Shown: one piece after another, positions 21,287 through 58,208 of the stretch
Layout: the number at the start of each line of letters is the position of its first letter
Numbering within the stretch: position 1 is the first letter of the stretch
From: Deltaproteobacteria bacterium
GTDB taxonomy: Bacteria; Bdellovibrionota_B; Oligoflexia; Oligoflexales; Bog-1112
Assembly (NCBI GenBank): GCA_947475005.1
Contig: CANJLI010000005.1
Location: 5,858 to 69,857, forward strand
Direction of reading: 5' to 3'
DNA length: 64,000 nt
The notes under the pieces: model-generated
The model's input: only the letters and a program-made list of their open reading frames with translations
What the model was told of the DNA's origin: nothing
Databases searched by the model: none
Made by a program: the position numbers and the translations under genes

Positions 21287-24038
<2,752 letters not shown>

Positions 24039-29790: not shown

Positions 29791-29882
29791 TTCAGGTCAT
29801 CCCCCTCTTTATTGAAGGGGAGATATATCACGTGGCGTGGAGGTTTTCTTTCTTTCTTTTTTGGATGAGAGAACTACAAAGC

Positions 29883-31544: not shown

Positions 31545-31663
31545 GGGTGCTTTTTTTCTCCCCCCTGGGGTGTCTCGAGCGTCCTCGGATCTCCTTTGGG
31601 TATCGGCAGTTGGCAACAGTAAGATGAGGGGGGAAAAAGGATGCAAATCCAAAGGAATGACCA

Positions 31664-32326
31664 TTGCCTACACAGACTACAGCCTCTAAAAGAAACAAGA
31701 CTCCAAAATCAAAGGGTATTTTCATTACCTTTGAAGGGGGAGAAGGGGTAGGAAAATCATCTCTGATCCAAGAGGTAGCTAAGCGCCTGACCCAGGAGAA
31801 GATCGCCCATATCGCAACCGGAGAGCCAGGGGGTACCCCCCGCGGCCAAGAACTCCGCCGCTGGCTACAAGCCTCCAAATGGCCCTCCGTCGCGGAGTTT
31901 TTGCTCTATTCCGCCGACCGAAGTCTACACGTGGAGGAAGTGATTCGTCCCGCCTTGGCCCAGGGCAAGTGGGTGCTTTGCGACCGATTTGTAGACTCCA
32001 GTCGGGTGTATCAAGGGCAAGCTGGGGGGTTAAATCGCTTGTTTATCGAGATCGTATCCACTCAGTGTACGGGGGGAATCGAGCCAGACCTTACATTCTT
32101 ATTGGACTGTGACCTCGATGTTTCCATGGGGCGGCTGGTGGGGCGAGAGGTTTTATCGCACTATGACCAGGCCAAACGAGCATTCCACGAGAAGGTCCGA
32201 TCTGGATTTTTGGCGCTTGCGGCGTTGAATTCGGACAGAATTGTGGTACTAGATAGTACCGCGCCTATAGCGGAATTGGTGACCCAAGTTTGGGATACAA
32301 TCAAGGAACGCGTGAATGGCAAGTAG
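31664..32326 (+). CDS. tmk: Thymidylate kinase (TTG start)
   Basis: P-loop FEGGEGVGKSS and DRF/DS motifs. Confidence 0.9.
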   Translation: MPTQTTASKRNKTPKSKGIFITFEGGEGVGKSSLIQEVAKRLTQEKIAHIATGEPGGTPRGQELRRWLQASKWPSVAEFLLYSADRSLHVEEVIRPALAQGKWVLCDRFVDSSRVYQGQAGGLNRLFIEIVSTQCTGGIEPDLTFLLDCDLDVSMGRLVGREVLSHYDQAKRAFHEKVRSGFLALAALNSDRIVVLDSTAPIAELVTQVWDTIKERVNGK

Positions 32327-33164
32327 CTGGAGTTCCCTCGTGGGAATGGAGTCAGTTTGTGAAAAGTGGAGGCGCCTCTTGCAAGAGGGGAGGCTTCCCA
32401 CGTGTATCTTGCTCACAGGCCAAGCTGGCATTGGAAAAAAACATCTCCTGCACCGTTTGGCTGCTCTGTTCTACTGTGACCAAGGGGGCTGTGGGACGTG
32501 TACCACCTGTCAGCACATCGATGGGGGGTTCCATACCGATGTCTTGCACATCAGCGCAGAGAGCCTCAGCTTACAAGAGGCCGTGGAACTGCAGCGACAT
32601 GTGGAGATGCACCCGTTGTTGTCTGCGAATTGCAAGCAACCCGGGGGGGCTCGCATCGTACTGGTGCCCGATATCGAGCGGTGGACACGACAGGGCGTAA
32701 ATCGTTTGCTCAAGACCCTGGAGGAACTGCCTCCCTATGCCTATGTGTTTTTTTCCACGAGCAGCCCTAAACGGCTTTTGCCTACAGTGTTGTCTCGATG
32801 CGTACGGTTTCCTGTTACAGGCGAACGCATTGCTGCCCCAGAAAGTGAAGAGGAGCGGCAGTGGAGCCAAGAGATCAATGCCTTTTGGGAACAGGTCTTT
32901 TCAGCTTCGATGCCAGCTGACATTTTGGGGCACGAGATTTGGAATCGAAAGGGGGCTGCTGTGCGGGTAGCCAATTCAGTGGAGGCTGCACTGAACCGAT
33001 GGTACCGACATCAGTTGGACTCCGGGCAAGCGATCACAGGGGTTCGAATCCGTAGAGAGGGGCTGCGAGCGTGGAAGAAACGAGCGATTCAAGAAAAAAT
33101 TATGATCAACGGTCAACTGGCAGCAGAGGTATTTGCACTGCAGGGACTCGGATCAAGAAGGTGA
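32316..33164 (+). CDS. holB: DNA polymerase III delta-prime subunit
   Basis: LLTGQAGIGKKHL plus Zn module CGTCTTCQ, then SRC-type motif LSRCVRF. tmk-holB synteny. Confidence 0.85.
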   Translation: MASSWSSLVGMESVCEKWRRLLQEGRLPTCILLTGQAGIGKKHLLHRLAALFYCDQGGCGTCTTCQHIDGGFHTDVLHISAESLSLQEAVELQRHVEMHPLLSANCKQPGGARIVLVPDIERWTRQGVNRLLKTLEELPPYAYVFFSTSSPKRLLPTVLSRCVRFPVTGERIAAPESEEERQWSQEINAFWEQVFSASMPADILGHEIWNRKGAAVRVANSVEAALNRWYRHQLDSGQAITGVRIRREGLRAWKKRAIQEKIMINGQLAAEVFALQGLGSRR

Positions 33165-33168
33165 TGAT

Positions 33169-34059
33169 ATGCAAGGTATAAATGTAGTCGGTGTGCAGTT
33201 TCGACGGGCAGGAAAGATCTATGATTTTTCTTGTGGGGATATCGAATTGCAGATCGGGGACTCGGTACTGGTGGATTCTGAACGAGGCCCTTCGATTGCA
33301 AAAGTAGCCACCGTTGGATTCCACAATCCGGTGCAAAAGACGAAGAAAAAACTGCAATCCATCGTGAGAAAATCCACGGAAAAAGAGCTGCAACGCAGCA
33401 GTCGCATCAGCCCAGAGGATGTACTTGCGTTTACCAAGGAAAAAATTTGGGACCTCAAGCTGAAGATGAAGCTTTTGAAGGCCGAGATTCAGTTTGGGGG
33501 AAGCAAGATCGTTATTTACTTCTCTGCTCCAGGGCGGGTGGACTTTCGGACCTTGGTGAAGGAACTTGCCAGTGGCCTGAAGTCTCGCGTGGAGCTTAAG
33601 CAGGTCGGCGCCCGAGATGAGACCAAACTCCTTGGGGGGCTTGGCGTTTGTGGACGAGAGTATTGCTGTTCCAGCTTTTTGCGGGAATTTGTCCCCGTCT
33701 CCATTCGGATGGCAAAGAACCAAAACCTTGCCATTAATCCAAGCAAAGTATCAGGAGGCTGTGGTCGATTGCTGTGTTGTTTGACCTATGAGAATGATGT
33801 CTATACCCACCTACGTCAGCAGCTCCCCCCTAGAGGAGCTAAAGTTCGACTCAAGAACCAAGAGACAAAGGTCCTGGTTTTAAAATCAGACTTTTTAAAT
33901 CAAAAACTCTTGGTAGAAACCATCGATGGCAAACACCTCACCTTGTCCCTCGAAGAGATTGAATATACTGCCGTACATAAAAAACCAGATCCTCAAGAAG
34001 ACTCCACCGGTGAAGACGAGGCTGAGTGGTCAGAATCCACCCAGTTAGAAGAAGATTGA
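33169..34059 (+). CDS. PSP1-domain protein (YaaT/RicT family)
   Basis: VGVQFRRAGKIYDFSCGDIELQIGDSVLVDSERG and the Cys cluster CGREYCCSSFL...GGCGRLLCCL. Lies downstream of holB. Confidence 0.85.
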   Translation: MQGINVVGVQFRRAGKIYDFSCGDIELQIGDSVLVDSERGPSIAKVATVGFHNPVQKTKKKLQSIVRKSTEKELQRSSRISPEDVLAFTKEKIWDLKLKMKLLKAEIQFGGSKIVIYFSAPGRVDFRTLVKELASGLKSRVELKQVGARDETKLLGGLGVCGREYCCSSFLREFVPVSIRMAKNQNLAINPSKVSGGCGRLLCCLTYENDVYTHLRQQLPPRGAKVRLKNQETKVLVLKSDFLNQKLLVETIDGKHLTLSLEEIEYTAVHKKPDPQEDSTGEDEAEWSESTQLEED

Positions 34060-34095
34060 TAAAGTTGCTATACGAGTTATTTCCTCACTCATGTC

Positions 34096-34250
34096 TCATT
34101 GCTGTATCCGAGTGAGCAATATATCAAACTGGCCCACTCTGTTACTTACACTTTGAACGGCATTATCAGGATTATATAGGGTAAAATTTTCAAGGCTACC
34201 TTCCGTAGTTCGTGTTTTATCCCATATGGTTGGATCAAACCGAAAATGCT
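34096..34250 (-). pseudogene. Truncated third copy (C-terminal ~50 codons) of the GH16-like gene
   Basis: The reverse strand reads ...FRFDPTIWDKTRTTEGSLENFTLYNPDNAVQSVSNRVGQFDILLTRIQQ*. This parallels the C-terminus ...DPTIWVKTKATQGGSEIYTLYNPDNAIQSVSDGVGQLDILLTRMQ* of the next gene. An in-frame stop lies upstream. Confidence 0.8.
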
Positions 34251-34335
34251 GTTTGCACTTTTTCCTACCAGAAGACTCTTGGTAAAAGTCTCATCTGTAG
34301 GGTAGAAGCTCACCCCCTTTATGGCATTGAGAGAG

Positions 34336-35298
34336 TCACTGCATCCGAGTGAGCAATATATCAAGCTGACCCACTCCGTCACTTACACTTTGAATGGCAT
34401 TATCGGGGTTATATAGGGTATAAATCTCGGAGCCACCTTGCGTAGCTTTTGTTTTAACCCATATGGTTGGATCAAGAGGGTTTTCGAAGTTGTCATACCA
34501 CTCTGCAACCGTGCTGAAATCTTCCTCGCTCTCTATATAAGGAAAATAACTGATAGAAGAATAAGAGATCTCATGTTCTTTCCATTTAGTTAGATCAACA
34601 GCTCCATCCCATTCGTTGTGAACATTACCACTTAACATGATTCGCTTGGGGGCAGAGAAATCGGTAACTTTCACTATTAGTATTTTTATATCATCCATGT
34701 ACCAAGTTATTAAGTTAGGCCTCCACTCGATGGAATAATTATGAAATTCACTAAAATAGGTAGGGGCCATATTTGTTATTGTGTATGCGCCTTCACAAGG
34801 ATGTACTACAGGAACTATGGTTTGAGCACCCCCTAAGATTTCAATATCAAACTCTTCCTGTGTTTCTGTACTATATAGAAAGAAGGCTGACACCGTTCCT
34901 CTAAAAGCCGCAGGCTTCATCCGTGCTGTGAATTTTCCATATTGAAAAGTCCTTGCTGTATAGATCTCTGCTGAATAGAAATGCTTTTCATTGCTCTTTT
35001 TGGGTTCAGAGACAAGATCTTGTGAGCTAGAATAGGAATACTGTTTAAAAAAATTGTGATTTCGGGGTTCAAGAGTGGAGGCTTGTGCTTTACCGAGAGA
35101 TCGGCCTGTATTATGGGTCTCACAATTAAAAGGCGTATAATCGGTAAGGGGGGATTTATTTTTTCCCCTTACCTGGGGGTCCTTTTGGGTATCGGAAAAA
35201 TCCATGCAACCAATTGTATATACAGAAATAAGAAGAAATACAAAAGAGTATTTAAAGTTCAAAAAAATCCTTTCAAGTTCAAAAAAATCAAACTGCAA
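34336..35298 (-). CDS. GH16-family (lichenase/laminarinase-like) glycoside hydrolase lipoprotein, copy 1 (probable TTG start at 35262)
   Basis: YGKFTARMKPAAFRGTVSAFFLY ... EEFDIEILG ... FHNYSIEWRPNLITWYMDD parallels Bacillus lichenase YGLYEVRMKPA...SSFFTY...DEIDIEFLG...YHTYAFDWQPNSIKWYVDG. Lipobox TIGC. Confidence 0.8.
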   Translation of the reverse strand: MQFDFFELERIFLNFKYSFVFLLISVYTIGCMDFSDTQKDPQVRGKNKSPLTDYTPFNCETHNTGRSLGKAQASTLEPRNHNFFKQYSYSSSQDLVSEPKKSNEKHFYSAEIYTARTFQYGKFTARMKPAAFRGTVSAFFLYSTETQEEFDIEILGGAQTIVPVVHPCEGAYTITNMAPTYFSEFHNYSIEWRPNLITWYMDDIKILIVKVTDFSAPKRIMLSGNVHNEWDGAVDLTKWKEHEISYSSISYFPYIESEEDFSTVAEWYDNFENPLDPTIWVKTKATQGGSEIYTLYNPDNAIQSVSDGVGQLDILLTRMQ

Positions 35299-35354
35299 AC
35301 TCTGTTTTTACTTCTTCCCGCTAGAAGCTCAACCCCTTTAGGGCATTGAGAAAT

Positions 35355-36284
35355 TCATTGCATCCGAGTGAGCAATATATCAAGCTGGCCTACTCCGTTA
35401 CTTACACTTTGAACGACATTCTTGGGGTTATATAGGGTATAGTTCTCAGGACTACCTCCCGCAGCTTGTGTTTTAACCCATATGGTTGGATCAAGAGGAT
35501 TTTCAAAGTTGTCGCGCCACTCTGGGACCGCGCTGAAATCTTCCTCATTCTCTATATAAGGAAAATAACTAAGAGAAGAATAAGAGATCTTATGTTCTTT
35601 CCATTTAGTTAAATCAACATCCCCATCCCACTTTTTGTGAACATTAGAACTTAACATGATTCGCTTGGCAGCAGAGTAATCGCTAACTTTCACTTCTAGT
35701 ATTTTTATATCATCCATGTACCAAGTTACTAATCTAGGCCTCCATTCAATGGAATAATTATGAAATTCATTAAAATAGGTAGCGTTCATATTTATTGTTT
35801 TGAAGGCTTTACAAGGATGTACTACAGGAACTATGGTTTTAGAACCTCCTAATATTTCAATATCAAACTCTTCCTGTGTTTCTGTACTATACAGGAAGAA
35901 GGCTGACACCGTTCCTCTAGAAGCCACGGGTTTCATCCGTGCTACGAATTTTCCATATTGAAAAGTTCTTGCTGTATAGACCTCTGCTGAATAGAAATAC
36001 TTTTCAGAAAGGTTGGAATTTTGGGCTTCGGAGACGAGATTTTGGGATTGAAAATAGGCATAGTTTTTAAACAGGTCACGATTTCGGGGTTCAGGAGCAA
36101 AATTTTGTGCATTAGCAAGAGACCGGCTTGTATTCTTGGCCTCACAATTAACGGATGTATAATCGGTAAGGGGAGGATTATCCTCCCCTCTTTTTACAGA
36201 TGAGGGCTCCCTTTTAGCTAAATTCATACAACCCACTGTATATATAGAAATAAACAGAAAGGCAGAAGAGTATTTAAATTTCAA
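35355..36284 (-). CDS. GH16-family glycoside hydrolase lipoprotein, copy 2
   Basis: Close paralogue of copy 1 with the same E-x-D-x-E motif (EEFDIEILG). Lipobox TVGC. Confidence 0.8.
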   Translation of the reverse strand: MKFKYSSAFLFISIYTVGCMNLAKREPSSVKRGEDNPPLTDYTSVNCEAKNTSRSLANAQNFAPEPRNRDLFKNYAYFQSQNLVSEAQNSNLSEKYFYSAEVYTARTFQYGKFVARMKPVASRGTVSAFFLYSTETQEEFDIEILGGSKTIVPVVHPCKAFKTINMNATYFNEFHNYSIEWRPRLVTWYMDDIKILEVKVSDYSAAKRIMLSSNVHKKWDGDVDLTKWKEHKISYSSLSYFPYIENEEDFSAVPEWRDNFENPLDPTIWVKTQAAGGSPENYTLYNPKNVVQSVSNGVGQLDILLTRMQ

Positions 36285-36322
36285 AATAATCCTTTCAAGT
36301 TCGAAAAGTTAAACCACCAATG

Positions 36323-37657
36323 CTACTTTTGATTCTTTCTGCTATAGTACTCTTGAGTTACTGTTTTATCAAATAGTTCTATGCGGTGCGTTATATTGTG
36401 ACACTTTTGAGCTAGCCTATGTCCTTGTTCTCTTATTATAGCCAAGTCTTTTCTTCGCTTGGGAGACAACCAGTAATCCACTGTTTTGTTTAAATTTTTA
36501 GGCGTTGAAGCTATATAATGCACATTCTCAATCATTCCTAATTGCCGCAAGAATGGGACATATAGCTTATCAGCCAGCAGAACTGTTCCTGTTGCAGGAA
36601 TTTCAAAATGTTTTGCAATGACATAGGGTCCAAAAGTTTTATCTGGATATGGCCCCCCCCCAACGGCGATGTCATAGTTTACAATCCATTGTGCAAAATC
36701 AGCCGCTTCTTCCAACGCATTTACTTCAGTATTATAGCCTTTGTGTATATGCTCTTTCCATAGAGGTGATTTTTTAACTTTAATTTCTTCACGTGCAACT
36801 TTGCGCAAAGGATACCAATCATCGTCGCTTTCCTTTCCCAATAAAAGGACTTTATGGGTTTTAGACGTTGCTTGTGAATCAAAAAAAGGTTGTGAAGCTG
36901 CATGAGGAAAGACATAACATGAGTTGATCTTAGAGGCGTCCACAAATTTCATCATATGCTCGGGATAGCGCGCAAACAGCACATCCATCCATGGGTAGGA
37001 GCGTTTAAGCGGTTCTATATCATCTGCCCAATTCAGATCTTCGACGATCAAAACTTTGAAAACCGGAAGAGTGGGTAAATCAGACCACTTGTCTAGAATA
37101 TTCGCTCTTAATACATAAAAAGCGACGACATCTGGTGGAGTGGCTGTTCCAATTTTATTCTGGATATTTTCAAGAAAATTAGGCCCAACTAAGTCGCTAG
37201 AATTAATTATATGCCAAGACTTTTTCCGTTGTAGCTCTTCTATAAAAATTCGGATGAATGTTGCTGTTCCTTTGTAAACTTTCGAGTCCGTATCTATAAC
37301 TATCACTTTTACTAATTTTGCCTCTTGTTGCTCTAGAGACAATGGAGATGGGTTGCTATTTTTGCAAGGGTGATTCAGAATATCGAAATTTCTTTCATGC
37401 TCTGGGCTTAATTTTAATGTAGAATCAGGCGTCACGACATGGAATGATTCAGGTATTGTTTGGTTATTACATCCTTTTTTAGATGGATCTCCAACACCTA
37501 AAGGACAATCGACGGGACACAGTTCAGCAGCCAGAAAAGCAGAAGGCGCCTGAGTTACAGAAACTGGAGAAGAATTCTTAATTGAAGCTCTACAAGCAGG
37601 CATAAACATAAGGAAAATCAAGATGTTAGGCAGAGCTTGGCAATTCATTATATGCAT
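36323..37657 (-). CDS. Lipobox-bearing protein with a C-terminal CgeB-like (GT1-fold) glycosyltransferase domain
   Basis: C-terminal HFEIPATGTVLLADK...ENVHYIAS...L.AI...G resembles the Glyco_trans_1_2/CgeB pattern. N-terminus LIFLMFMPAC. Confidence 0.5.
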   Translation of the reverse strand: MHIMNCQALPNILIFLMFMPACRASIKNSSPVSVTQAPSAFLAAELCPVDCPLGVGDPSKKGCNNQTIPESFHVVTPDSTLKLSPEHERNFDILNHPCKNSNPSPLSLEQQEAKLVKVIVIDTDSKVYKGTATFIRIFIEELQRKKSWHIINSSDLVGPNFLENIQNKIGTATPPDVVAFYVLRANILDKWSDLPTLPVFKVLIVEDLNWADDIEPLKRSYPWMDVLFARYPEHMMKFVDASKINSCYVFPHAASQPFFDSQATSKTHKVLLLGKESDDDWYPLRKVAREEIKVKKSPLWKEHIHKGYNTEVNALEEAADFAQWIVNYDIAVGGGPYPDKTFGPYVIAKHFEIPATGTVLLADKLYVPFLRQLGMIENVHYIASTPKNLNKTVDYWLSPKRRKDLAIIREQGHRLAQKCHNITHRIELFDKTVTQEYYSRKNQK

Positions 37658-37777
37658 TTCTTTAGCTTTCTAATAATTCAAATAAATCGGTTATCCTACT
37701 GATATCTATGAAAAGCTGGTCCGCTCAAAATTTTTTATATTTTTCCTCTGCACATTCTCTATGGATTTCTTATGAAA

Positions 37778-38626
37778 TCAAGGCGCAACACAGCCACTCG
37801 CTTGGTTTTTATCACGACGACCCATTTGATCGATGCCAGACTTTTCTGGATCGGTGCTAGTTTTAACAAGTTCTGGATTTATACAATATGCTTGAAATTT
37901 TGGATCTGTAAAGAAATATTCCCCAATTAATATATCAGTAGGCATATTTCTTAAAGGCATCACCTTCTCATTTATCTTGCGTGCACTTTCTGCGTTAATT
38001 AAATATGCGACATTTCCTGCTGTACAGCTCGCGCTTAAAAACGAATATCTCTGATCCCGTGTCTTTGGAGTCCGGTCCTTTGGGCAGCCCCAGTGATAAT
38101 TTGCATTGCAATATAGATAAATCAGATCCCAGTTTTTAGGCAGGTGCTTTAGAGTATCATCAAGACGATTTTTAAAATCAGGAGGAAGTTCACTATCGTC
38201 TTCTAAAACTAAAGCCACCTTATGGCCGCTCTTGATGACCATTTTTGAAACTTCATAGTGTGATAATTTATTTCCAACTTCACCTGGAGATAAAGGTTTA
38301 AAGGGTAACTTTGGATCGCATTGATAGGAATAACCCTTATCTGCATCTAGTATTTGCAATGCAGTAGAAGTACGCTCGTAATTAAAGGACATGCCGTAGA
38401 TAGCTGAAAATCGAGTGAATGGAAGTGCTAGCCCATCAAGTTGATCCTGCATGGCCCTCATCTTCTTTTTGTCACGATCTAAATTTATAACAATGGTTTC
38501 ATCAAGACTTTCTTCGGTATATGTTACCGGCCAAGTCCTCATTTGTGCTCTACGATCTGTCGTAGTTTGAAGACAACCTTGAAAAAGAAAAAAAAATGCC
38601 CCCAAATAGGAAACTGATTTTCTCAT
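37778..38626 (-). CDS. Glycosyltransferase family 25
   Basis: VINLDRDKKKMRAMQDQLDGLALPFTRFSAIYG, GEVGNKLSH and ALVLEDD match GT25 blocks. N-terminus LGAFFFLFQGC. Confidence 0.8.
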   Translation of the reverse strand: MRKSVSYLGAFFFLFQGCLQTTTDRRAQMRTWPVTYTEESLDETIVINLDRDKKKMRAMQDQLDGLALPFTRFSAIYGMSFNYERTSTALQILDADKGYSYQCDPKLPFKPLSPGEVGNKLSHYEVSKMVIKSGHKVALVLEDDSELPPDFKNRLDDTLKHLPKNWDLIYLYCNANYHWGCPKDRTPKTRDQRYSFLSASCTAGNVAYLINAESARKINEKVMPLRNMPTDILIGEYFFTDPKFQAYCINPELVKTSTDPEKSGIDQMGRRDKNQASGCVAP

Positions 38627-39124
38627 TTCTACTCCCTGATATTTTTCTACTCATTTATTGGGCAACAATTTTTTGGACATAAAAAACCTTGGGCTCTAAC
38701 CACAACTAAATGTCATTGCCAGAGCCCAAATCTGCTCTTTTTTTACAATCGTCACTCTTGTGCCATCATCTCTTTATTATGAAATATTGTCAAATTTAGA
38801 TACAATTTGGAAAATAATTTCGATGGACACTATTCTTCAAATCGCTTGTTAGATTTTAAATCCACAAAAAAAATGCAAAAAATCTCGTATAAAAAGGATG
38901 TTAATAGAAATTAAGTTTCACAAAGAGTCTATTGACCCTAGCTCAAAAAACGATGTAAAATATGAAGCAACACTTTTAAAAATCACTTCATTTGGTAAAA
39001 AAAAAGCTATTAGCTATTAATAAAGAGAAATTTATGGGGCTCTATAGTGTATCTTGAAGATTTGATTGGTTAAAAATTATCCAATTTCGAAAACAAGAGT
39101 TATTTTATATTCAAGGGGGGCCCT

Positions 39125-40039
39125 ATGAGGCTTTATTCTATTCTCTTATTTGCTCTAGGTATTTCCTCCTGTAGAATTACCTCTGAGGACAGAGGAAATG
39201 AAATGTCCTCTATTATTTCTGATGTGGGAATCCCCAAAAAAATTCATCAGGTATGGATAGGACAAGACAAAGAACCGGATTATAATCAGTATTATAAGGA
39301 GTCTATGTCTAAACATGCTCCAAATCATGAGTATAAACTTTGGACCAATAAAGATCTGACGCGAGAAAATTTTCCCATTGTGTACGACTATATACTGCAA
39401 GCAAGCGAAGCAGGTAAAAGAAAATATGGCGTAGACCCAAAAATGTGGAATGGGACACCTACAAGAAAATTAGCTCAAATTTCTGATCTGATGCGTCTTG
39501 AAATTATCTATCATCATGGAGGATTTTACTTTGATGTTAAAACAGAACTTTTAAAATCAATTGACCATTTAAGTACTCCAAATATTTCATTTGTTGTCGC
39601 CAATGAAGACCCTTGTGGACTTACATGTAAGAGTGGAAATAAACTATACCTCTCTAACTCGATCTTCGCTTCAGCTCCTAATAGTAAGATTCTTCAACGC
39701 TTGCTGAAGAAAGACCGGTTAGAACAAATTAAATTCGATCGAGACGAAGTCAATGAAGAAACTGGGCCTTTTTATTTTCGTTCTGGTATTCTTAATGCAA
39801 ATGAAGTGCATCTATTAAAAACAGATGAGGCCTTCCCATACATTTCTTGGACCTCTCCTTATCAAAAAGCAGGAGTTGATAGATGCCTTTCAAAAGAACG
39901 TGATTCACTTAAAACAAGCGATGATCACGTTAAGACAATAATTATAAAAAATGAGACTGTGTACTTAGAATACCCTTGTGAAAAATATCCTACCAGCCTC
40001 TTAGTCATGCATTGGAATTTGGGAGGAACCTGGAAGTAA
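39125..40039 (+). CDS. GT32-type (Gly_transf_sug/OCH1-like) glycosyltransferase
   Basis: IPKKIHQVWIG...EYKLWTN...ISDLMRLEIIYHHGGFYFDVK matches the family signature. Lipobox GISSC. Confidence 0.75.
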   Translation: MRLYSILLFALGISSCRITSEDRGNEMSSIISDVGIPKKIHQVWIGQDKEPDYNQYYKESMSKHAPNHEYKLWTNKDLTRENFPIVYDYILQASEAGKRKYGVDPKMWNGTPTRKLAQISDLMRLEIIYHHGGFYFDVKTELLKSIDHLSTPNISFVVANEDPCGLTCKSGNKLYLSNSIFASAPNSKILQRLLKKDRLEQIKFDRDEVNEETGPFYFRSGILNANEVHLLKTDEAFPYISWTSPYQKAGVDRCLSKERDSLKTSDDHVKTIIIKNETVYLEYPCEKYPTSLLVMHWNLGGTWK

Positions 40040-40101
40040 TCTTTTCTACCTCAATTTTTAGAAATTAAGGCTTATCTGCATCAGATTTTTTAGAGGAAAA
40101 A

Positions 40102-41322
40102 ATGAGACTTCAATTCATCTGTCCTTTTCTTTTTTGCATAATTGCTTGCGCTCAAATTAGAAATGAAAATGAGCCTTTTCAGTTTTCCCCTCTTCGTTCT
40201 TTGGCTGAATTCCCGACAATGCGAATTTTTCCAGAAGATGAAAACATAAAAAATTCGGATTCAGAAAAATTCAATACTCAGTTTAAAAAATATTTTCGAG
40301 TCATTGATCAGAGCGACTCTTCTGAAGAAATTGTAGATATTAATTTGTTTATGGGAACCGTCCATTCAAACCAATTAAAAAATGGAGTTGAAAATTGGAT
40401 TTTCCTTGACCCAACTGCACAAATAGATGCATCTTCATTAAAAGATATTGATACCGTAATCAGCAAAAATGCTGAGTTTACATTGCTTATTCCATATACA
40501 AAAAATAAGAAAAAAGAATTTTTTCATGTCGCTGAATTAGATGGTGAAAATTTCTCTACCCAAATAAGAGTGGTTTATGACAGCTATGTAGAAAGACGAC
40601 CAATATCTATTTCTAAATCATTCTATATAAATTTAGATCGATCTACCGATAGAAAAAAATTTATGGAGAAGCAGAATCAAGAATACGGACTCAACCTAAC
40701 CAGATTTCCTGCTGTAGATGGATCCGTTTTTAAAAATCAGTACATCGTCCAGCCGGAAACATCAATTTTACAAAAGCTTACCTATGGTCAAGATGAATTT
40801 TTATATAATTATAGAAAAGACCATTACGGAAAAGGGATGACTTTTGGTGAGATCGGAAATTTTTTAAGTCTTTTTTATATTATGAAAACCATAGTGGAAG
40901 ATAATTATCCAATCACATTAATTCTTGAAGATGACGCCAAAATTCCCAAAAATTTTAATGCTAAAATAGGAAATTATCTTAAGAAAGCACCGAAAAATTG
41001 GGACATCATATATCTTTATTGCAATTCTCATGAATCTTTTGGTTGTAACTATAGATTTAAAAAAACAAGAGATGGATTATTTAGCACCCTTAGCGGAGGA
41101 AGTTGCGTAGCCGGTATGGTAGCGGCTGTTCTTAGCCAAAAGGGTGCTAGAAAAATACACAGACAATTACTTTTACCGATCTCCCGCCCCGTCGATATGC
41201 TGATTGGAAACCAATTTATGCCACAAAAGTTGGATGAATTTTCCGCTTTTTGCACAACGCCAGAACTTGTGACTACCGGCGATTTAGGTTCTGAAATCAA
41301 AGGAATGGGGAGAGAGCATTAA
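40102..41322 (+). CDS. Two-domain protein: unknown N-terminal ~170 aa plus a GT25 glycosyltransferase domain
   Basis: FYINLDRSTDRKKFMEKQNQEYGLNLTRFPAVDG, GEIGNFLS, LILEDD. Lipobox IIAC. Confidence 0.75.
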   Translation: MRLQFICPFLFCIIACAQIRNENEPFQFSPLRSLAEFPTMRIFPEDENIKNSDSEKFNTQFKKYFRVIDQSDSSEEIVDINLFMGTVHSNQLKNGVENWIFLDPTAQIDASSLKDIDTVISKNAEFTLLIPYTKNKKKEFFHVAELDGENFSTQIRVVYDSYVERRPISISKSFYINLDRSTDRKKFMEKQNQEYGLNLTRFPAVDGSVFKNQYIVQPETSILQKLTYGQDEFLYNYRKDHYGKGMTFGEIGNFLSLFYIMKTIVEDNYPITLILEDDAKIPKNFNAKIGNYLKKAPKNWDIIYLYCNSHESFGCNYRFKKTRDGLFSTLSGGSCVAGMVAAVLSQKGARKIHRQLLLPISRPVDMLIGNQFMPQKLDEFSAFCTTPELVTTGDLGSEIKGMGREH

Positions 41323-41334
41323 TTTTAAATAGAA

Positions 41335-42597
41335 ATGGAGTTGACAATGGAATCTATCTTAAAATTAACACTGTTTTCTCTTGTCTTTTACTTTACCCTT
41401 CAATCTTGTTCGTCAATTAAAATTAAAAATGATGACAGTGACATGAGGAATAAAACAAAGATTAATGGAAAATTAGTTGAAGTTAATTTTGGAAACCGTC
41501 TATGCAAACACCCCGATTTTAAGGATTCACGAATCCCTGAGTTACAGGCAACTCACACTATAGAAAGGTTGAATGATCCAATCTTCAAAGCTGCCATACA
41601 ATATGAAATCCCTCTTATAAAATTTCAATATAACTCATCCATTGTTCGCATTGATGATTCTGGTTATTTGATGACAGTAAGATTTGATTGCACAAACCGG
41701 TCTAATCAAAATACGCAAAGCTACACCCTGGTCCATGAACTCAATAATGAGCTCACACCTGTGTCCGACTTGCAGTTTTTAAAAATACCTTCATTTCTAG
41801 ATGCAAAAATAGAAAATGGTATCGCCGAAGATATGAGACTGTTTAAAATTAAAGATCAAATATATGGAACAATAGGTGATAATCTAGACGGAAGAAATTA
41901 TTATTTTCCTGATAGACGAATACACCTTCTTAAAATTTCTACAGAAATGGGGGAATGGAAAGCAAAATCAATTGAATTTTTTTCTTCCCCGAAAGACTCC
42001 CCTATAAAAGGACCCGAGAAAAATTGGGCCCCTATCCCTATTTTTACCAGCTCCGACTCAGAATCACCACTTCTCGTCTATGCGCTAGATCCCCAATATA
42101 TGCTTGCTAAAGCCACTCCGAATAAAACAATACAGGGAGAAAGAGAGATTGAAATAGTCAAACCCTGTAACAGGACACTCCCCTGGGATCGCGCTCAATA
42201 CGGAAAACTTCGGGGCGGTACCCCATTGATTTGGTTAAATGAGCTGCAAGGATATTTAGGTTTTTTTCATACGGCAAAGCATCTGGAAAATGAAAGAGGC
42301 AATATATACTACATGGGAGCCTATGTAGTGAATGGTACAACTAAGTGTGTATCTCATATTTCTCCCGCTCCTTTACAGTACACTGGCATGTATGATGCAA
42401 AAGAAGAAGAAAAAGGGTTTTGGATTCATAATGCGGGGCCAGATACTGAAGTGATATTTCCAACTGGGGTCGAAATTTCTGTTTGGGAGGGGCAGCAGGT
42501 AATTATTGTATCAGCAGGAATCAATGATTACAGAGTAAAAAATTTTATCCTAGACAGACAAGCTCTAACTGAAAGTTTGTCGAAAATAACGCCATAG
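41335..42597 (+). CDS. Lipobox-bearing hypothetical protein; possibly a GH130/GT108-like beta-propeller (weak)
   Basis: 420-aa ORF with N-terminus FYFTLQSC. The short motifs AEDMRLF and PEKNWAPIP recall DUF377/GH130-type enzymes, but nothing more supports this. Confidence 0.5.
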   Translation: MELTMESILKLTLFSLVFYFTLQSCSSIKIKNDDSDMRNKTKINGKLVEVNFGNRLCKHPDFKDSRIPELQATHTIERLNDPIFKAAIQYEIPLIKFQYNSSIVRIDDSGYLMTVRFDCTNRSNQNTQSYTLVHELNNELTPVSDLQFLKIPSFLDAKIENGIAEDMRLFKIKDQIYGTIGDNLDGRNYYFPDRRIHLLKISTEMGEWKAKSIEFFSSPKDSPIKGPEKNWAPIPIFTSSDSESPLLVYALDPQYMLAKATPNKTIQGEREIEIVKPCNRTLPWDRAQYGKLRGGTPLIWLNELQGYLGFFHTAKHLENERGNIYYMGAYVVNGTTKCVSHISPAPLQYTGMYDAKEEEKGFWIHNAGPDTEVIFPTGVEISVWEGQQVIIVSAGINDYRVKNFILDRQALTESLSKITP

Positions 42598-42623
42598 AAA
42601 ATCGTTGAAAACAGTTACAACTG

Positions 42624-43826
42624 TCAGCCTACACTCCAGCTGAAGGCTCTATGCAACCTCTCTCTACTCTCCTCCCCAGACTCAGGTTTGACCCCGATCT
42701 GAATCACCCCGTGTTGAATCTCTAGCAACAACAAAGCTTCTCCCAACAATATAGTAATTGTCTCCAAGAGGGTATGACTTTGAGAAAATCCGGTTCCTAC
42801 AATAGAGAAAAGGTGAATGGACAACTTTCTCTTGCACTCCACCTTTTTACACTGAATGGTAAGAAATTCCATATATGCACTAGCATGTGCCAGCTCTAAA
42901 CTCAGTTGAAGCTCAATCTGATCATCTATGCGTCGTAAGCTCCACAACTGTGGTATATCCCCTCGACTGCAGAGCCACTCATAGATCGGTTGAATTGCTC
43001 CACAACCTGTGAGCATAAGATCGAGATACACCAAGTCTTTCTTGTCCGTAAGCGCAACAAAGTGGGGCGTTTCCATGGGGCGGGTATGTCCTTCAATAAC
43101 AGTACCAGGTTGGCTGGGAGCCAAGCTGGAATGGATGTGAATGGGGATCTCGTATTTACAAGCTAAATTTGCAGCACGATCATGGAGCACCTGAGCTCCG
43201 GATCCACTGAGTATACAAGCAGACTCCCAGCTCAAGTGAGGCAGGCGCCGGGCGCTGGAGATTGCACGAGGGTCTGCGGTATAGATACCTTCTACATCTT
43301 TATAAATTTCACATCGATCTGCCCGTAGGGTAGCAGCCAAGGCGACGGCAGTAAGATCAGACCCACCTCGACCCAAGGTTGTCACCTCTTTCGTCTGGGG
43401 ATCTACCCCTTGAAAACCCGCGATGACCACAATTTGATACGCCTCCAAACTCTTGCGCAACCGATCCCCTAAAATTCGATGAATTTTGGCATTGCCATGA
43501 GTGGAGTCGGTAAGGATTCCAATTTGGGAGCCTGTGAAAGAGATCGCATGAAGCCCTTCTTTTTCCAACGCCATGGCCAAGAGGGCTGCAGTCATCCGCT
43601 CCCCTGCGGTCAGCAGCATATCCATCTCTCGTTGAGGGGGATTCGGATGCACATCGGCAGCCAATGCGACCCATTCATCGGTAAAACTACCCATGGCACT
43701 CACCACCACAACCGCTTGGGTGGGGGGGCGTATAGTAGAACGAATATAATGAGCGACCTGTTGGATACGCTCTACAGTGGCAAGGGAAGTACCGCCGTAT
43801 TTTTGGATCACAAGAGCGGGGGGCAC
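42624..43826 (-). CDS. lysC: Aspartate kinase
   Basis: VIQKYGGTSL, VVVVSAMG..TD, GRGGSD and C-terminal ACT-like region. Confidence 0.9.
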   Translation of the reverse strand: MPPALVIQKYGGTSLATVERIQQVAHYIRSTIRPPTQAVVVVSAMGSFTDEWVALAADVHPNPPQREMDMLLTAGERMTAALLAMALEKEGLHAISFTGSQIGILTDSTHGNAKIHRILGDRLRKSLEAYQIVVIAGFQGVDPQTKEVTTLGRGGSDLTAVALAATLRADRCEIYKDVEGIYTADPRAISSARRLPHLSWESACILSGSGAQVLHDRAANLACKYEIPIHIHSSLAPSQPGTVIEGHTRPMETPHFVALTDKKDLVYLDLMLTGCGAIQPIYEWLCSRGDIPQLWSLRRIDDQIELQLSLELAHASAYMEFLTIQCKKVECKRKLSIHLFSIVGTGFSQSHTLLETITILLGEALLLLEIQHGVIQIGVKPESGEESRERLHRAFSWSVG

Positions 43827-43951
43827 GATGTGATTCTCCTGAATGGGGGTGTACCTCGCAAAGGCCTATCCTACAAAATACAGGATGGGTATGATGAAGG
43901 CGATAAGAGAGTTCAGTATGAGGGAATTTTTAGAAAAAAGAAAGGGCGCCT

Positions 43952-44734
43952 GTGAGTTTTTCCTTGCGAGTTCGGGTGTTGGGATGTGGAACCTCTACGG
44001 GGGTGCCGATTATTGGGTGCAGCTGCCGGGTATGCCAAAGCGCAGACTCCAAAAATCATCGATTGCGCTCTTCCATTTTAATTGAAATCTCAAATCCTTC
44101 GCTCCAGCTCGTCGTGGATACCACTCCAGAATTTCGAGTACAGATGTTACGAGAACGAGTGACACATCTAGATGGCGTATTAATGACCCACACTCATGCG
44201 GACCATTGCCATGGGTTTGATGACTTGCGAGCGTTTTACTTTTGGAACCATCGTGCCATTCCCGTCTGGATGGCCCATGCCCATGTGCAAGATTTTCAAA
44301 AGCGGTTTCCCTACCTCTTCCAAAAAACCGGCTATTTGGGTACCGTAGCTTTGATCTCTCTTCACACCCTATCTCAAGGGGCATTTCAGATAGAAGGCGT
44401 GCCCATTGAACATACCGAACTGCCTCATGGGTCGACCGTATCGACCGCTTACCGAATCGGTTCTTTCGCCTATGCCACGGATTTTCAATTTTTTCCAGAT
44501 GCTGTAATCGAAGCTTGGAAAGGCAAGATTCACACCATGGTGGCCAGTGGCCTGCGATTCCAGCCTCACCCCACCCACTCGAGCATCCCCGAAACCATCG
44601 AGCTCTTTCGACGATTAGGGGTTAAGCGAGGGATCCTCACCCATTTGACCCACGATGTAGAATATGTCAGAGATTCTATCGGGTTGCCCGCTGGCGTCGA
44701 ATTGGCCTACGATGGGATGACAATAGACCTCTAA
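43952..44734 (+). CDS. MBL-fold metallo-hydrolase (PhnP-like)
   Basis: THTHADHCHG motif and N-terminal Cys cluster CSCRVC. Confidence 0.8.
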   Translation: MSFSLRVRVLGCGTSTGVPIIGCSCRVCQSADSKNHRLRSSILIEISNPSLQLVVDTTPEFRVQMLRERVTHLDGVLMTHTHADHCHGFDDLRAFYFWNHRAIPVWMAHAHVQDFQKRFPYLFQKTGYLGTVALISLHTLSQGAFQIEGVPIEHTELPHGSTVSTAYRIGSFAYATDFQFFPDAVIEAWKGKIHTMVASGLRFQPHPTHSSIPETIELFRRLGVKRGILTHLTHDVEYVRDSIGLPAGVELAYDGMTIDL

Positions 44735-44778
44735 GAACACGACACATCTATGTCACATCGACCAACGCGGGGGAATTT

Positions 44779-45885
44779 ATGATCATCGGAGTGCCGAAAG
44801 AAATTAAGGTACGAGAAAATCGAGTAGGCATCGTACCAGGAGGCGTCAAAGTGCTGACCTCTCAAGGACATCGGGTTCTCATTGAAAAAAATGCAGGCGT
44901 AGGCGCTGGCATTTCAGATGGGATGTATCAAGAGGCAGGGGGCACCATCCTGAATGATGTAGAAGAGCTCTGGGGCAGCGCAGAGATGATCATGAAGGTG
45001 AAGGAGCCCATCGAGGCTGAATACGCGCGTATGCAGCCCAATCAAATTTTATACGCATATCTCCACCTCGCAGCAGGACCCCAGTTGACAGAGGCATTGC
45101 TGCAGCGCCGCGTGCGAGCCATCTCCTACGACACCGTACAACTAGCGGATGGTTCCCTTCCTTTACTGAGACCGATGAGTGAAGTGGCAGGTCGTATGGC
45201 TGTACAGGTCGGGGCTCATTGCTTACAAAAAAACCACGGAGGAAAAGGAATCTTGCTAGGAGGCGTTCCCGGGGTGAAGCGGGGCCGCGTAGGAATCTTG
45301 GGTGGTGGTGCGGCTGGAGCCAATGCTGCCAAGATGGCCATTGGTTTGGGGGCAGAAGTTACGATCATTGATGTTAACCAATCCCGCCTTTTGTACCTCG
45401 ATGAGATTTTTGGCAACCAAGTTACAACGCTCATGTCACGCCCAGACAACATTGCCCACGTGGTACAACAGTCAGATCTCGTAATCGGTGCCGTATTGGT
45501 GCCAGGTGCAAAGGCGCCACGCTTGGTAACACGAGACATGGTAGCAAGCATGGAGCCTGGCTCTGTGATTGTGGATGTGGCCATTGATCAAGGTGGCTGT
45601 GTGGAAACCATCCATCCCACGACCCACGATGATCCCACTTACTTATGTGAAGGGGTGAATCATTACGGCGTTACTAACATGCCTGGGGATGTGCCTCGCA
45701 CCAGTGCATACGCACTCACCAATGTGACGCTCTCCTACGCCTGTGAGTTGGCGAACAAAGGGTTTGACCGCGCACTCCGAGAATCCGCACCTTTGCGCCT
45801 GGGGCTCAACACGTGGGAAGGGAAAATGACCCATGAGGTGGTGGCACAAGCCTTGGGGCTGCGCTATGTGGCGTACGCTACCTAG
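44779..45885 (+). CDS. ald: Alanine dehydrogenase
   Basis: MIIGVPKEIKVRENRVGIVPGG and NAD fold GILGGGAAGANAA. Confidence 0.9.
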   Translation: MIIGVPKEIKVRENRVGIVPGGVKVLTSQGHRVLIEKNAGVGAGISDGMYQEAGGTILNDVEELWGSAEMIMKVKEPIEAEYARMQPNQILYAYLHLAAGPQLTEALLQRRVRAISYDTVQLADGSLPLLRPMSEVAGRMAVQVGAHCLQKNHGGKGILLGGVPGVKRGRVGILGGGAAGANAAKMAIGLGAEVTIIDVNQSRLLYLDEIFGNQVTTLMSRPDNIAHVVQQSDLVIGAVLVPGAKAPRLVTRDMVASMEPGSVIVDVAIDQGGCVETIHPTTHDDPTYLCEGVNHYGVTNMPGDVPRTSAYALTNVTLSYACELANKGFDRALRESAPLRLGLNTWEGKMTHEVVAQALGLRYVAYAT

Positions 45886-45916
45886 TTTTTTGGTAAGCAA
45901 GTGGATACCAATTCTG

Positions 45917-45982
45917 TGGGGACATCCGTTGGAGTGTCTCCGTTACCGCACCGCATCGGGGACACTCCAACGGGGTGCCCCC
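45917..45982. repeat. Two copies of the short GGGGACA...GTGTC/GCCCC palindrome
   Basis: ggggacatccgttggagtgtctcc (45917-45941) and ggggacactccaacggggtgccccc (45957-45982). Confidence 0.7.
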
Positions 45983-46068
45983 AAAAACACATTGCTGCCA
46001 CAAGTTTTTGAGTTATAATAAGTTATAACTTGTTAAATAATAACCCCCTGGGGGGGAGGGATGTGCAA

Positions 46069-46308
46069 ATGCTTGCTCAGAAATTGAAAATTCGCAAAAT
46101 TGGAAACAGCCAAGGTGTTATTCTTCCTAGTTATTTGGTGGAAGCCTTAAAACTTGATACTGGCAGTGAGATCGAAGCTTGGATTTATGATGGGGTTCTC
46201 ATTCTTTGTCCGCCAGCACCAACTCTTCAACAACTCGTTAATTCGGTTCCAAAAGGAGAATCTTTTATTGAAAGCAAAACCGGTAAAGCCGAAGGAAATG
46301 AAGTATGA
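46069..46308 (+). CDS. mazE: MazE/AbrB-fold antitoxin (start trimmed to ATG 46069)
   Basis: KIRKIGNSQGVILPSYLVEALKL is the SpoVT/AbrB swapped-hairpin signature. Overlaps mazF by 4 nt. Confidence 0.8.
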   Translation: MLAQKLKIRKIGNSQGVILPSYLVEALKLDTGSEIEAWIYDGVLILCPPAPTLQQLVNSVPKGESFIESKTGKAEGNEV

Positions 46309-46631
46309 AGATCATACCGAAAAGGGGTGACATCATCATGATGAATTTTGATCCACAAGCAGGCTCAGAACATCTGAAACGACGACCGGCACTCGTTATT
46401 TCAGATGTTTTATTTAATGATCTTGGTCTTGCCGTCGTCTGTCCCATCACTTCAAGCGCTCCAAGGCATGGTTTTCATATTCCTTTAGAAAAAAATATGG
46501 AAACCAAAGGCTGTGTGATGACTGAGCAAATTAAGAGCCTTGATTTTCTTGCAAGAAAAGCTCAGTACATTGAGACAGCACCTCTCGTGTTACTTCACCG
46601 AGTTCGAAGTGTTATTAGTCAATTTCTTTAA
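46305..46631 (+). CDS. mazF: MazF/PemK-family endoribonuclease toxin
   Basis: PKRGDIIMMNFDPQAGSEHLKRRPALVIS ... VVCPITS ... QIKSLDF. Confidence 0.85.
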   Translation: MKIIPKRGDIIMMNFDPQAGSEHLKRRPALVISDVLFNDLGLAVVCPITSSAPRHGFHIPLEKNMETKGCVMTEQIKSLDFLARKAQYIETAPLVLLHRVRSVISQFL

Positions 46632-49371: not shown

Positions 49372-49381
49372 TTTGTAACGA

Positions 49382-58201: not shown

Positions 58202-58208
58202 AACAGAT

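Follow-up and report, generated by a model that had tools for sequence, protein, structure and literature searches.

The DNA analyzed here is a 64,000-nucleotide stretch of contig CANJLI010000005.1, from an uncultured freshwater Gram-negative bacterium; the whole 64-kb stretch is referred to below as the window. At positions 34096 to 42597, between tmk-holB-PSP1 on one side and lysC on the other, it contains an AT-rich island of seven genes for predicted glycan-active lipoproteins. The genes are arranged in two divergent operons, with GT25a, GT-B-like, GH16b, and GH16a on the minus strand and GT32, GT25b, and the GH130-like gene on the plus strand. Sigma-70-like hexamers are found on both strands of the spacer between them, at a frequency not above that in shuffled sequence. 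The features of the island are as follows.

34102 to 34238, minus strand: third GH16 copy reduced to a 3'-end remnant of 137 nt, 85% identical to the corresponding part of each full GH16 gene
34336 to 35262, minus strand: GH16a, lichenase/XET-type beta-glucanase or transglycosylase, predicted lipoprotein MNFKYSFVFLLISVYTIGC; Pfam GH16, 75 bits
35355 to 36284, minus strand: GH16b, tandem paralogue of GH16a, predicted lipoprotein MKFKYSSAFLFISIYTVGC; Pfam GH16, 75 bits
36323 to 37657, minus strand: GT-B-like protein with a Glyco_trans_1_2/CgeB-type C-terminal half, predicted lipoprotein (..ILIFLMFMPAC); PF13524 below threshold
37778 to 38626, minus strand: GT25a glycosyltransferase, predicted lipoprotein MRKSVSYLGAFFFLFQGC; Pfam GT25, 68 bits
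38627 to 39124, no strand: AT-rich divergent intergenic spacer of 498 bp between the minus- and plus-strand operons
39125 to 40039, plus strand: GT32/toxin-like GT-A glycosyltransferase, predicted lipoprotein MRLYSILLFALGISSC; Pfam Gly_transf_sug, 42 bits
40102 to 41322, plus strand: GT25b, with a predicted lipobox MRLQFICPFLFCIIAC, an extra domain of about 150 residues, and a GT25 domain (residues 172 to 355); Pfam GT25, 74 bits
41335 to 42597 (likely start 41347), plus strand: GH130/BMT-like five-bladed beta-propeller, predicted lipoprotein MESILKLTLFSLVFYFTLQSC; structure model and family profile

At 36.9% GC, the island is the 8.5-kb stretch with the lowest GC content anywhere in the window, compared to 47.8% in the left flank, 48.5% in the right flank, and 48.1% in the rest of the window. 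GC content at third codon positions (GC3) is 0.27 to 0.35 for the seven island open reading frames (ORFs) versus 0.49 to 0.62 for the neighboring tmk, holB, PSP1, lysC, ald, and valS, and the raw tetranucleotide distance peaks at the island, with an L1 of 0.39 against ~0.16 to 0.20 at most other window positions. The change in composition is confined to ~200 bp around the stop codons of PSP1 (34059) and lysC (42624), and computed values now stand behind the abrupt switch to AT-rich DNA between these two genes that a first-pass annotation, made by a model from the letters alone, had noted by eye. Milder AT-richer patches are also present in the window, at 5 to 8, 11 to 15, and 56 to 61 kb, and no rRNA or tRNA genes were found in it.

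Both borders of the island recur in other assemblies. The left junction is reproduced at 100% identity by two contigs corresponding to window positions 25185 to 39110 (L326 and L327, from Logan and ENA assemblies of separate samples), and the right junction, also at 100% identity, by L001 (window 35862 to 49443) as well as L002 and L168. These assemblies are independent, coming from different pipelines and from different samples of several lakes, and the island is identical throughout. Some, at least, of these samples are from Swedish lakes (PMC10244341). The island is stable, or fixed, in the population, and the segment, which is compositionally foreign, is best read as a horizontally acquired genomic island.

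Domain assignments are clearest for the GH16 and GT25 proteins. Both GH16 copies match Pfam PF00722 with 75.4 bits against a cut-off of 22 and contain EEFDIEILG, the catalytic E-x-D-x-E motif without a beta-bulge insertion. They share 72.6% protein identity, with a dN/dS of 0.48, and represent a tandem duplication; together with the remnant at 34102 to 34238, they bear out the two hydrolases and truncated third copy that had been proposed. Their best solved structures are 1,3-1,4-beta-glucanases of Fibrobacter and Bacillus, with the fungal Crf1 and plant XET transglycosylases coming next. The presence of two GT25 enzymes, one of them with an additional domain, was likewise borne out, with PF01755 scores of 68.2 bits for GT25a and 73.9 for GT25b against a cut-off of 24. 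The two are 37% identical to each other, and both keep all family-invariant residues of our alignment (A5; INLDR..R, RFxAxDG, GExG, and EDD), the EDD motif of GT25a being E142-D143-D144. Judged by alignment, the catalytic motifs of the GH16 and GT25 proteins are intact.

The nearest solved structure to GT25a is human procollagen galactosyltransferase 1 (COLGALT1; E 3e-11). In GT25b, the extra domain of ~150 residues lies between the lipobox and the GT25 domain (window 40102 to 40614, residues 1 to 171), and for the N-terminal 173 residues no Pfam match and no homologue was found in any search. The closest relatives of GT25b, P0076 and P0077 (35 to 39% identity), are lipoproteins that lack this domain, and the remaining matches are weak. 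GT25 matches on viral contigs are generic only, at 25 to 33% identity, and a limited literature search found nothing on exported or lipoprotein GT25 enzymes.

The product of the third transferase-type gene had been called GT32/OCH1-like. The GT32-type domain is upheld, with 41.8 bits to Pfam PF04488 (Gly_transf_sug) against a cut-off of 23, and the likeness to Och1 holds in part: the sequence profile places the domain nearer to the toxin glycosyltransferases SetA, YeGT, and PaTox than to Och1, and by fold Och1 ranks among them. An AlphaFold2 (AF2) model of good quality (predicted local distance difference test [pLDDT], 87) has a GT-A fold, and Foldseek matches it to YeGT (1e-9), PaTox (3e-8), SetA (8e-8), and Och1 (9e-8). 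Among viral structure models, glycosyltransferases of Pithovirus, Marseillevirus, the Klosneuvirus group, and algal viruses were matched. The DxD motif (GGxYxDxD) is incomplete, reading GGFYFD137-V-K139 where YeGT has GGIYKD-I-D. This D-V-K is found throughout the GT32 lipoprotein clade, with D-T-T or D-S-T in the giant-virus clade (alignment A1), while ordinary bacterial GT32 proteins (P0039 to P0046) retain DTD; Glu141, four residues past D137, is invariant across the subfamily, lipoprotein and giant-virus clades alike. Since the subfamily deviates from the defining motif of the family, it may have an unusual donor chemistry or have lost it.

Relatives of the GT32 protein are few, with 46 detectable in a search of 5.8 billion clustered proteins. 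The four closest, at 40 to 48% identity, are bacterial lipoproteins, and with the window protein they form a five-member clade with 91% bootstrap support in a neighbor-joining tree. Other close relatives (P0006 to P0036, ~30 to 45% identity) have no signal peptides. Giant-virus metagenome-assembled genomes (MAGs) of IMG/VR contain many full-length matches at 36 to 39% identity, and among the contigs fetched, L109 and L111 carry a capsid or RPB2 gene of nucleocytoplasmic large DNA viruses. The deeper nodes of the tree have 13 to 17% support, too little to tell whether transfer ran from viruses to bacteria or the other way. Distant matches in GTDB genomes are concentrated in Dependentiae/Babeliales, Chlamydiota, and Rickettsiales, with cyanobacteria also represented, and proteins in which GT25 is fused to GT32 exist (P0033 and P0034). 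Two contigs binned as "Acidimicrobiaceae bacterium SP83" (L008 and L047; ~31% GC) have a GT32 gene of 27% GC whose product is 38% identical to the window protein; they are probably mis-binned giant-virus DNA, the identity being at the level of the giant-virus MAG matches and unlike an actinobacterial genome.

The product of the last plus-strand gene had been left as an unknown 420-aa protein. Against Pfam it has nothing above threshold (PF12141, E 0.12; PF04041, no match), and only two close homologues, of 54 and 33% identity, are present among the 5.8 billion clustered proteins. A profile search of 1.84 billion representatives, by comparison, yielded 892 relatives at E <= 0.001. Of 40 aligned family members, 25 match PF04041 (GH130) and 16 match PF12141 (fungal BMT), and the family profile finds the beta-1,2-mannobiose phosphorylase 7fip in the PDB with E 1e-9. 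The AF2 model, of moderate quality (pLDDT, 64; predicted template modeling score, 0.69), has a five-bladed beta-propeller fold, and its top Foldseek matches are the GH130 enzymes 5ay9, 1vkd, 4udg, and 9fj8 (E 5e-8 to 1.5e-6; template modeling [TM] score, 0.45 to 0.60). The residues E165-D166-M-R168 are conserved in the family and align to the GH130 EDPR of 7fip, and E228-K-N-W231 is conserved too. The profile, model, and EDxR motif matches thus identify the protein, as far as alignment and predicted structure can tell, as a divergent member of the GH130/GT108/BMT propeller superfamily. This superfamily contains hydrolases, phosphorylases, and transferases, activities that are readily interconverted (PMC4599007, PMC12814180).

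Lipoproteins in which the propeller is fused to a GT-A domain exist (P0090, P0092, and P0096), and a narrower alignment scan of viral contigs with the close propeller clade found no viral relatives. The homologue at 33% identity, P0074, is a lipoprotein with the truncated start of a C-terminal GT-A domain, and its gene, within positions 282 to 4119 of L171, is flanked by the transposases Y1_Tnp, HTH_Tnp_1, and rve, which hints at a route by which such genes move.

For the protein that had been described as a CgeB-like glycosyltransferase, the direct match is below threshold, at 21.1 bits to PF13524 (Glyco_trans_1_2) against a cut-off of 25 (E 3e-4), and a PDB sequence search with it found nothing. 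Over 150 to 185 residues of its C-terminal half (~250 to 430), it is 29% (L109; E 4e-12) and 26% (L111) identical to the products of ORFs located beside GT32 genes on giant-virus contigs. The homologue on L109 exceeds the PF13524 cut-off with 40.6 bits, and the GT-B-like assignment is weakly suggested, transitively, through this ORF. Residues 1 to 250 have no family assignment.

The feature that unites these proteins is the N terminus. Each island ORF had been noted to open with a short hydrophobic stretch ending in Cys, and with corrected starts this is true of all seven, each having a hydrophobic core of 11 to 17 residues followed by [AGS]-Cys at positions 16 to 21, after a short n-region that is positively charged or neutral. 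Elsewhere in the window, about 1 of 43 ORFs is a plausible lipoprotein, and other secreted proteins have ordinary A-x-A type signals. The corrected starts are TTG 35262 for GH16a and TTG 36284 for GH16b, each after AAAGGA, and ATG 41347 for the propeller, after GGAG; that of GH16a, whose longest ORF extends to 35298, is homologous to that of GH16b, and that of the propeller is also chosen by automatic gene callers. For the GT-B-like gene, the start is either 37657 or 37648, and the ATG of GT25a is preceded by AGGGAG. Shine-Dalgarno motifs thus precede those starts that include the signal. Under the strict PROSITE pattern PS51257 (basic n-region, hydrophobic core of 7 to 22 residues, and lipobox [LVI][ASTVI][GAS]-C), three of the seven pass, among them GT25a and GT32. 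None of the seven has Asp at position +2. Genes of the lipoprotein pathway (lgt, lspA, lnt, and lol) were not found within the window.

Lipoboxes are also found in the relatives, namely in the closest GT32 homologues (P0002 to P0005), in the GT25 homologues P0077 and P0078, as well as P0076 once the upstream frame is read, and in the propeller homologues P0073, P0074, P0090, P0094, and P0096 to P0098. The more distant propeller relatives that were read have signal anchors. The N termini had been taken as either lipoprotein-type or type-II signal anchors, with a layout mirroring that of Golgi and endoplasmic reticulum (ER) enzymes. The lipoprotein half of this idea is retained. A Golgi-style type-II signal anchor was rejected, as cores of 11 to 17 residues are too short for it and point instead to cleavable lipoprotein signals. 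From these patterns we strongly infer that the seven proteins are exported by the Sec pathway and lipidated.

The conserved lipoboxes of the relatives and the distribution of cysteines lend independent support to export. The Cys count of each of the seven mature proteins is even (2, 2, 6, 6, 4, 4, and 4). The exported GT25 clade is marked by the gain of four conserved Cys and by the loss of the one in GExGC; the signal-less P0081 and P0086 lack the four gained and keep the one in GExGC. In the GT32 alignment, C254 and C285 are invariant and a CxxxC pair is present in most members, and the propeller clade has four invariant Cys. Such patterns would be the marks of disulfide-bonded proteins in an oxidizing compartment. 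A giant-virus-like contig (L331, 671 to 3728) has adjacent genes for the signal-anchored GT25-GT32 fusion P0033, for another GT25, and for an Erv1/Alr thiol oxidase; since viral Erv1-type oxidases can form disulfides, signal-less giant-virus relatives would have reason to keep the conserved Cys.

Where the island came from can be addressed through composition and relatives. For every island gene tested, the nearest relatives are bacterial lipoproteins scattered in uncultured bacteria, and homologues in other bacteria occur as scattered single genes that are not in lipopolysaccharide (LPS) loci. The contigs with the closest lipoprotein homologues (L006, L007, L169, and L170) have 38 to 40% GC overall, with the gene compositionally native, and the raw tetranucleotide profile of the island is nearest to low-GC bacterial contigs (L009 and L169) and far from giant-virus loci. 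Because the closest relatives are bacterial and their GC content resembles that of the island, the immediate donor was most likely a low-GC bacterium whose copies of the genes already had lipoboxes. In the simplest history, the families would have adapted to export in a low-GC bacterial lineage, the GT32 and GT-B-like genes possibly having been exchanged ultimately with giant viruses, and the assembled cluster would then have moved into the 48% GC genome.

The eukaryotic or giant-virus origin that had been suggested for the module is thus supported in part. On giant-virus contigs, GT25 genes are found near GT32 and a GT-B-like gene beside GT32, and the GT32 family is mostly viral; on the other side, GT25 matches are generic, the propeller has none, and the nearest relatives are bacterial. 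Transfer of the whole island straight from a giant virus was rejected, with specific viral affinity present only in GT32 and, weakly, in the GT-B-like protein, with lipoboxes being bacterial, and with a composition nearer to low-GC bacteria. Scans of viral contigs with the single GH130-like, GT25b, and GT-B-like proteins gave no match, by a method that detects near-identical peptides only. A cluster of related character is present in a GTDB MAG (MFD06714.bin.2.5; L009, a 1.6-Mb contig of 37% GC), where 12 kb at 4339 to 16365 encode eukaryote-type glycosyltransferases with signal peptides or signal anchors: four GT47/RXYLT1-like paralogues, a GT2, a GT32 (35% identical to that of the window), a GH130-like propeller with the EKNW motif, and two unknown paralogues.

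Leloir glycosyltransferases are assumed to act where nucleotide sugars are, in the bacterial cytoplasm or the lumen of the eukaryotic ER and Golgi, and the paradox of exported Leloir-type transferases at this locus is real. To account for it, we propose that the seven proteins leave the cytoplasm via Sec, acquire a lipid on the final Cys of each short signal peptide, and, stabilized by disulfides, remain attached to the envelope at its periplasmic or outer face, where they would act jointly on a glycan outside the cytoplasm. That they serve one glycan system is probable given the GT25-GT32 fusions, the neighborhoods on viral contigs, and the propeller-GT-A fusions. As the GT-A and GT-B enzymes look catalytically intact and their donors are absent from the periplasm, the most likely setting would be contact with a eukaryotic host or prey such as a protist or alga, with its lysate or vacuole, or with a host-derived compartment. 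There, the enzymes might draw on nucleotide sugars and glycans of the host to remodel glycans on the surface of host or bacterium, although the source of the donors and the host-directed role are speculative. Features that fit include the solved neighbors of the GT32 protein, which are toxins and effectors acting on host proteins; the concentration of its distant relatives in protist-associated bacteria and giant viruses; and the ER/Golgi character of the families, the best solved match of GT25a being the ER-lumenal COLGALT1. The whole chain, an acquired, envelope-tethered glycan-modifying kit that uses activated sugars of a host or prey, is offered tentatively, as a possibility that falls somewhat short of probable.

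Parts of this proposal have precedents. The host-targeting GT-A toxins (SetA of Legionella, YeGT of Yersinia, PaTox of Photorhabdus, and clostridial TcdA/TcdB), which are the best profile and fold matches of the island GT32, leave the bacterial cytoplasm and use UDP-sugars of the host. They differ in being delivered by a type III secretion system (T3SS), a type IV secretion system (T4SS), or self-translocation, in having the full DxD, and in sharing only ~20% identity with the island protein, which is a small predicted lipoprotein with D-V-K and a Cys-containing C-terminal part in common with giant-virus proteins. Glycosylation clusters of giant viruses (Nucleocytoviricota), such as Prymnesium kappa virus RF01 and Mimiviridae, resemble the island in being rich in GT32 and GT25; in the former virus, GT32 (11 proteins, the most represented) and GT25 (8) were singled out among glycosyltransferase families (10.1101/2020.07.30.228163). 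The viral copies, however, have no signal peptides, or have transmembrane anchors in fusions, and their place of action is the cytoplasm of the host or the viral factory.

The closest mechanistic precedent is Lst of Neisseria gonorrhoeae, a surface-exposed outer-membrane sialyltransferase that acts on CMP-Neu5Ac of the host (PMC4668040, PMC8092323); it differs in belonging to GT52, in being a single enzyme without a lipoprotein cluster, and in coming from a known obligate human pathogen. Like the proposal, Chlamydia trachomatis has glycogen transferases and hydrolases that are exported together, into the inclusion lumen, where UDP-glucose is supplied by the host (PMC4829429). Those enzymes are T3SS substrates of GT5, GH13, and other families, and the intracellular lifestyle is established there. 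COLGALT1 combines the invariant EDD with an oxidizing extracytoplasmic compartment, as proposed for the island GT25 proteins, which are nonetheless only ~25 to 30% identical to COLGALT1 and lipooligosaccharide (LOS) GT25 enzymes and have no collagen-related partner genes. Bacterial GT25 enzymes of the LOS type (Lic2A/LgtB), in contrast, are cytoplasmic, lack the four clade-specific Cys, and are encoded in LOS loci. The GH130 beta-mannoside phosphorylases and beta-1,2-mannosidases, GT108, and the fungal GT91 (BMT) beta-1,2-mannosyltransferases share propeller fold, profile matches, and the EDxR acid motif with the window propeller, which stands apart in its own clade, with EKNW and RGGTP motifs, four conserved Cys, and a signal peptide, lipobox, or anchor in the members examined.

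Several observations weigh against the kit reading. With respect to acquisition, no integrase, tRNA, or flanking direct repeat was found at the island as a mark of mobility, and when base composition is normalized, its oligonucleotide signature is only moderately deviant (correlation 0.80, the third lowest position). A scan of GTDB genomes for presence or absence of the island in close species found none, with the best GT32 match at 38%; a scan of JGI metagenomes with lysC gave aspartokinases of <=58% identity only, whose neighbors are not shared, and no close relative without the island. With respect to export, four of the seven lipoboxes fail strict PS51257 by one residue (Y or C at -4, or P at -2), the signal of the GT-B-like protein is the weakest of the seven, with no basic residue in its n-region, and GH16a has an ATG directly after the Cys that gives a signal-less protein of 289 aa and is picked by automatic gene callers. 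With respect to function, the second Asp of the DxD is absent from the GT32 protein, no secretion-system, adhesin, or host-interaction genes are linked to the island, and the window, with ordinary biosynthetic genes such as lysC, gcvP, ald, and nuoB, bears no sign of a host-associated lifestyle. To our knowledge, known translocated effectors are not delivered by lipid anchoring.

Among the alternatives, the one that survives best is that the lipoproteins build or edit a periplasmic or surface glycan of the bacterium itself (a glucan, a mannan-like capsule, or a glycoprotein), by transglycosylation through the GH16 and GH130-like proteins and by transferases using unconventional donors such as sugar-1-phosphates and lipid-linked or recycled sugars. 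The GH16 proteins belong to the ExDxE (lichenase/XET/Crh) type, some members of which are dedicated transglycosylases, and the GH130 superfamily could lend itself to such a role through its easily interconverted activities (PMC4599007, PMC12814180), phosphate being present in the periplasm. The Lys that replaces the metal-binding second Asp in the GT32 clade fits a noncanonical donor, fixation of the island in the population is in keeping with a function of this kind, and an AT-richer GT2 synthase operon at 57 to 61 kb of the window could supply polymer. Yet no periplasmic pool of activated sugars is known for GT-A and GT-B enzymes, the island has no linked gene for a transporter, flippase, or lipid-carrier enzyme, GT25 retains the canonical EDD nucleotide-sugar/metal motif, and homologues elsewhere are scattered single genes without a conserved pathway. 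We regard this explanation as unlikely, if not strongly so.

A second alternative is that the island is a foraging kit, in which surface lipoprotein hydrolases degrade eukaryotic or algal beta-glucans and beta-mannosides and the transferase-like proteins are glycan-binding or hydrolytic modules or decaying passengers. Surface lipoprotein GH16 enzymes and secreted GH130 beta-mannosidases are standard in polysaccharide utilization (PMC4599007), the tandem GH16 duplication with its remnant suggests dosage selection on a hydrolase, and the GT32 protein is without a full DxD motif. The idea is made distinctly improbable by the absence of an adjacent TonB-dependent transporter, SusD-like protein, sugar permease, or regulator, by the conserved family-invariant residues and intact reading frames of the transferase-type genes, which are four of the seven, and by fusions elsewhere that tie transferase families together (GT25 with GT32 and the propeller with GT-A).

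The third alternative, an ordinary cytoplasmic cluster for LPS/LOS core or capsule in which the N termini are peripheral anchors or start-codon artifacts and the low GC is typical, is very improbable. It could draw on the classical role of bacterial GT25 proteins as LOS galactosyltransferases, on the AT-richness that O-antigen and capsule loci commonly have relative to the genome, and on the downstream ATG starts available in GH16a and GH16b. GH16 enzymes, however, are not known to take part in LPS or capsule synthesis in the cytoplasm; the lipobox Cys is present in seven of seven genes and conserved in homologues; the Cys gains are specific to the exported GT25 clade and missing from the signal-less P0081 and P0086; and the best solved match of GT25a is an enzyme of the ER lumen. 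The island has no flippase, polymerase, sugar-nucleotide, or lipid-carrier genes and no wzx, wzy, wzm, or wzt, and the closest homologues of its proteins are not LOS transferases and lie outside LPS loci. In agreement with the first-pass annotation, it is by gene content and homology not an LPS, LOS, or O-antigen locus; lptC, lptA, lptB, kdsD, and rpoN are encoded elsewhere in the window. Last, a misassembly or misbinning, or giant-virus or eukaryotic DNA wrongly fused to a bacterial contig, for which the GC shift at both borders, the mostly giant-virus GT32 family, and the mis-binned contigs in public MAGs (L008 and L047) might be cited, is effectively refuted by junctions that are 100% identical in independent assemblies, by a bacterial Shine-Dalgarno site and lipobox at every island gene, and by the absence of viral hallmark genes from the island.

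Every domain at the locus is in, or related to, a known CAZy family, and the system is therefore not categorically new. The combination is one that a limited literature search did not find described: an all-lipoprotein cluster of GT25, GT32-like, GT-B-like, and GH130/BMT-like proteins with a duplicated GH16 and no genes of a cytoplasmic polysaccharide pathway. If the kit reading is extended to relatives, a bacterial strategy that has not been described would emerge, in which Leloir transferases of ER/Golgi and giant-virus type (GT25, GT32-like, and BMT/GH130-like) are refitted with lipoprotein signals and disulfides and work on the outside of the cell, assembling or editing glycans with nucleotide sugars from a compartment of a eukaryotic host or from prey. 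Such a strategy would cover the island, the scattered lipoprotein homologues, and the signal-anchored clusters of Dependentiae- and Chlamydia-like genomes such as L009; we consider this generalization doubtful.

A population-fixed cluster in which all transferases have a predicted export/lipidation signal and Cys patterns of the oxidizing type challenges the rule on where Leloir enzymes act, and would imply either an unrecognized supply of donors outside the cytoplasm or, for a lake bacterium, a lifestyle of host-dependent glycosylation. The analysis also assigns a predicted fold and superfamily to a secreted propeller family of 892 representative clusters (E <= 0.001), one member of which was previously unannotated, and the small clade of bacterial lipoproteins within a mostly giant-virus GT32 family offers a concrete example of genes moving between giant viruses, bacteria associated with protists, and free-living bacteria. 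As a set of small, probably soluble enzymes, the island products have donor and acceptor specificities that are directly testable.

Other features of the window merit mention. The GT2 synthase operon (57038 to 61134, plus strand; 42 to 44% GC) begins with genes for two unknown proteins, each with a hydrophobic segment at the N terminus, and continues with one for a processive GT2 synthase of the chitin-synthase/NodC-like type; it may represent an exopolysaccharide synthase locus distinct from the island. An exported repeat protein of eukaryote-like character, 821 aa long, is encoded at 46 to 2511 (plus strand); it combines an ordinary cleavable signal peptide with a WD40 beta-propeller at the C terminus. 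Four secreted proteins of 311 to 401 aa without a Pfam match are encoded at 11716 to 16517, in DNA of 40 to 47% GC; at least three have similar N termini and are seemingly paralogous, and the one at 11716 to 12651 has a lipobox, the others having A-x-A-type signals. The CTP synthase at 22275 to 24032 (minus strand) has 45% protein identity to genes on the giant-virus MAG contigs L095 and L096. Some 3.5 kb beyond the right end of the island, just downstream of alanine dehydrogenase, gene calls on L001 place a MazE/PemK-type toxin-antitoxin pair at window positions 46069 to 46631.

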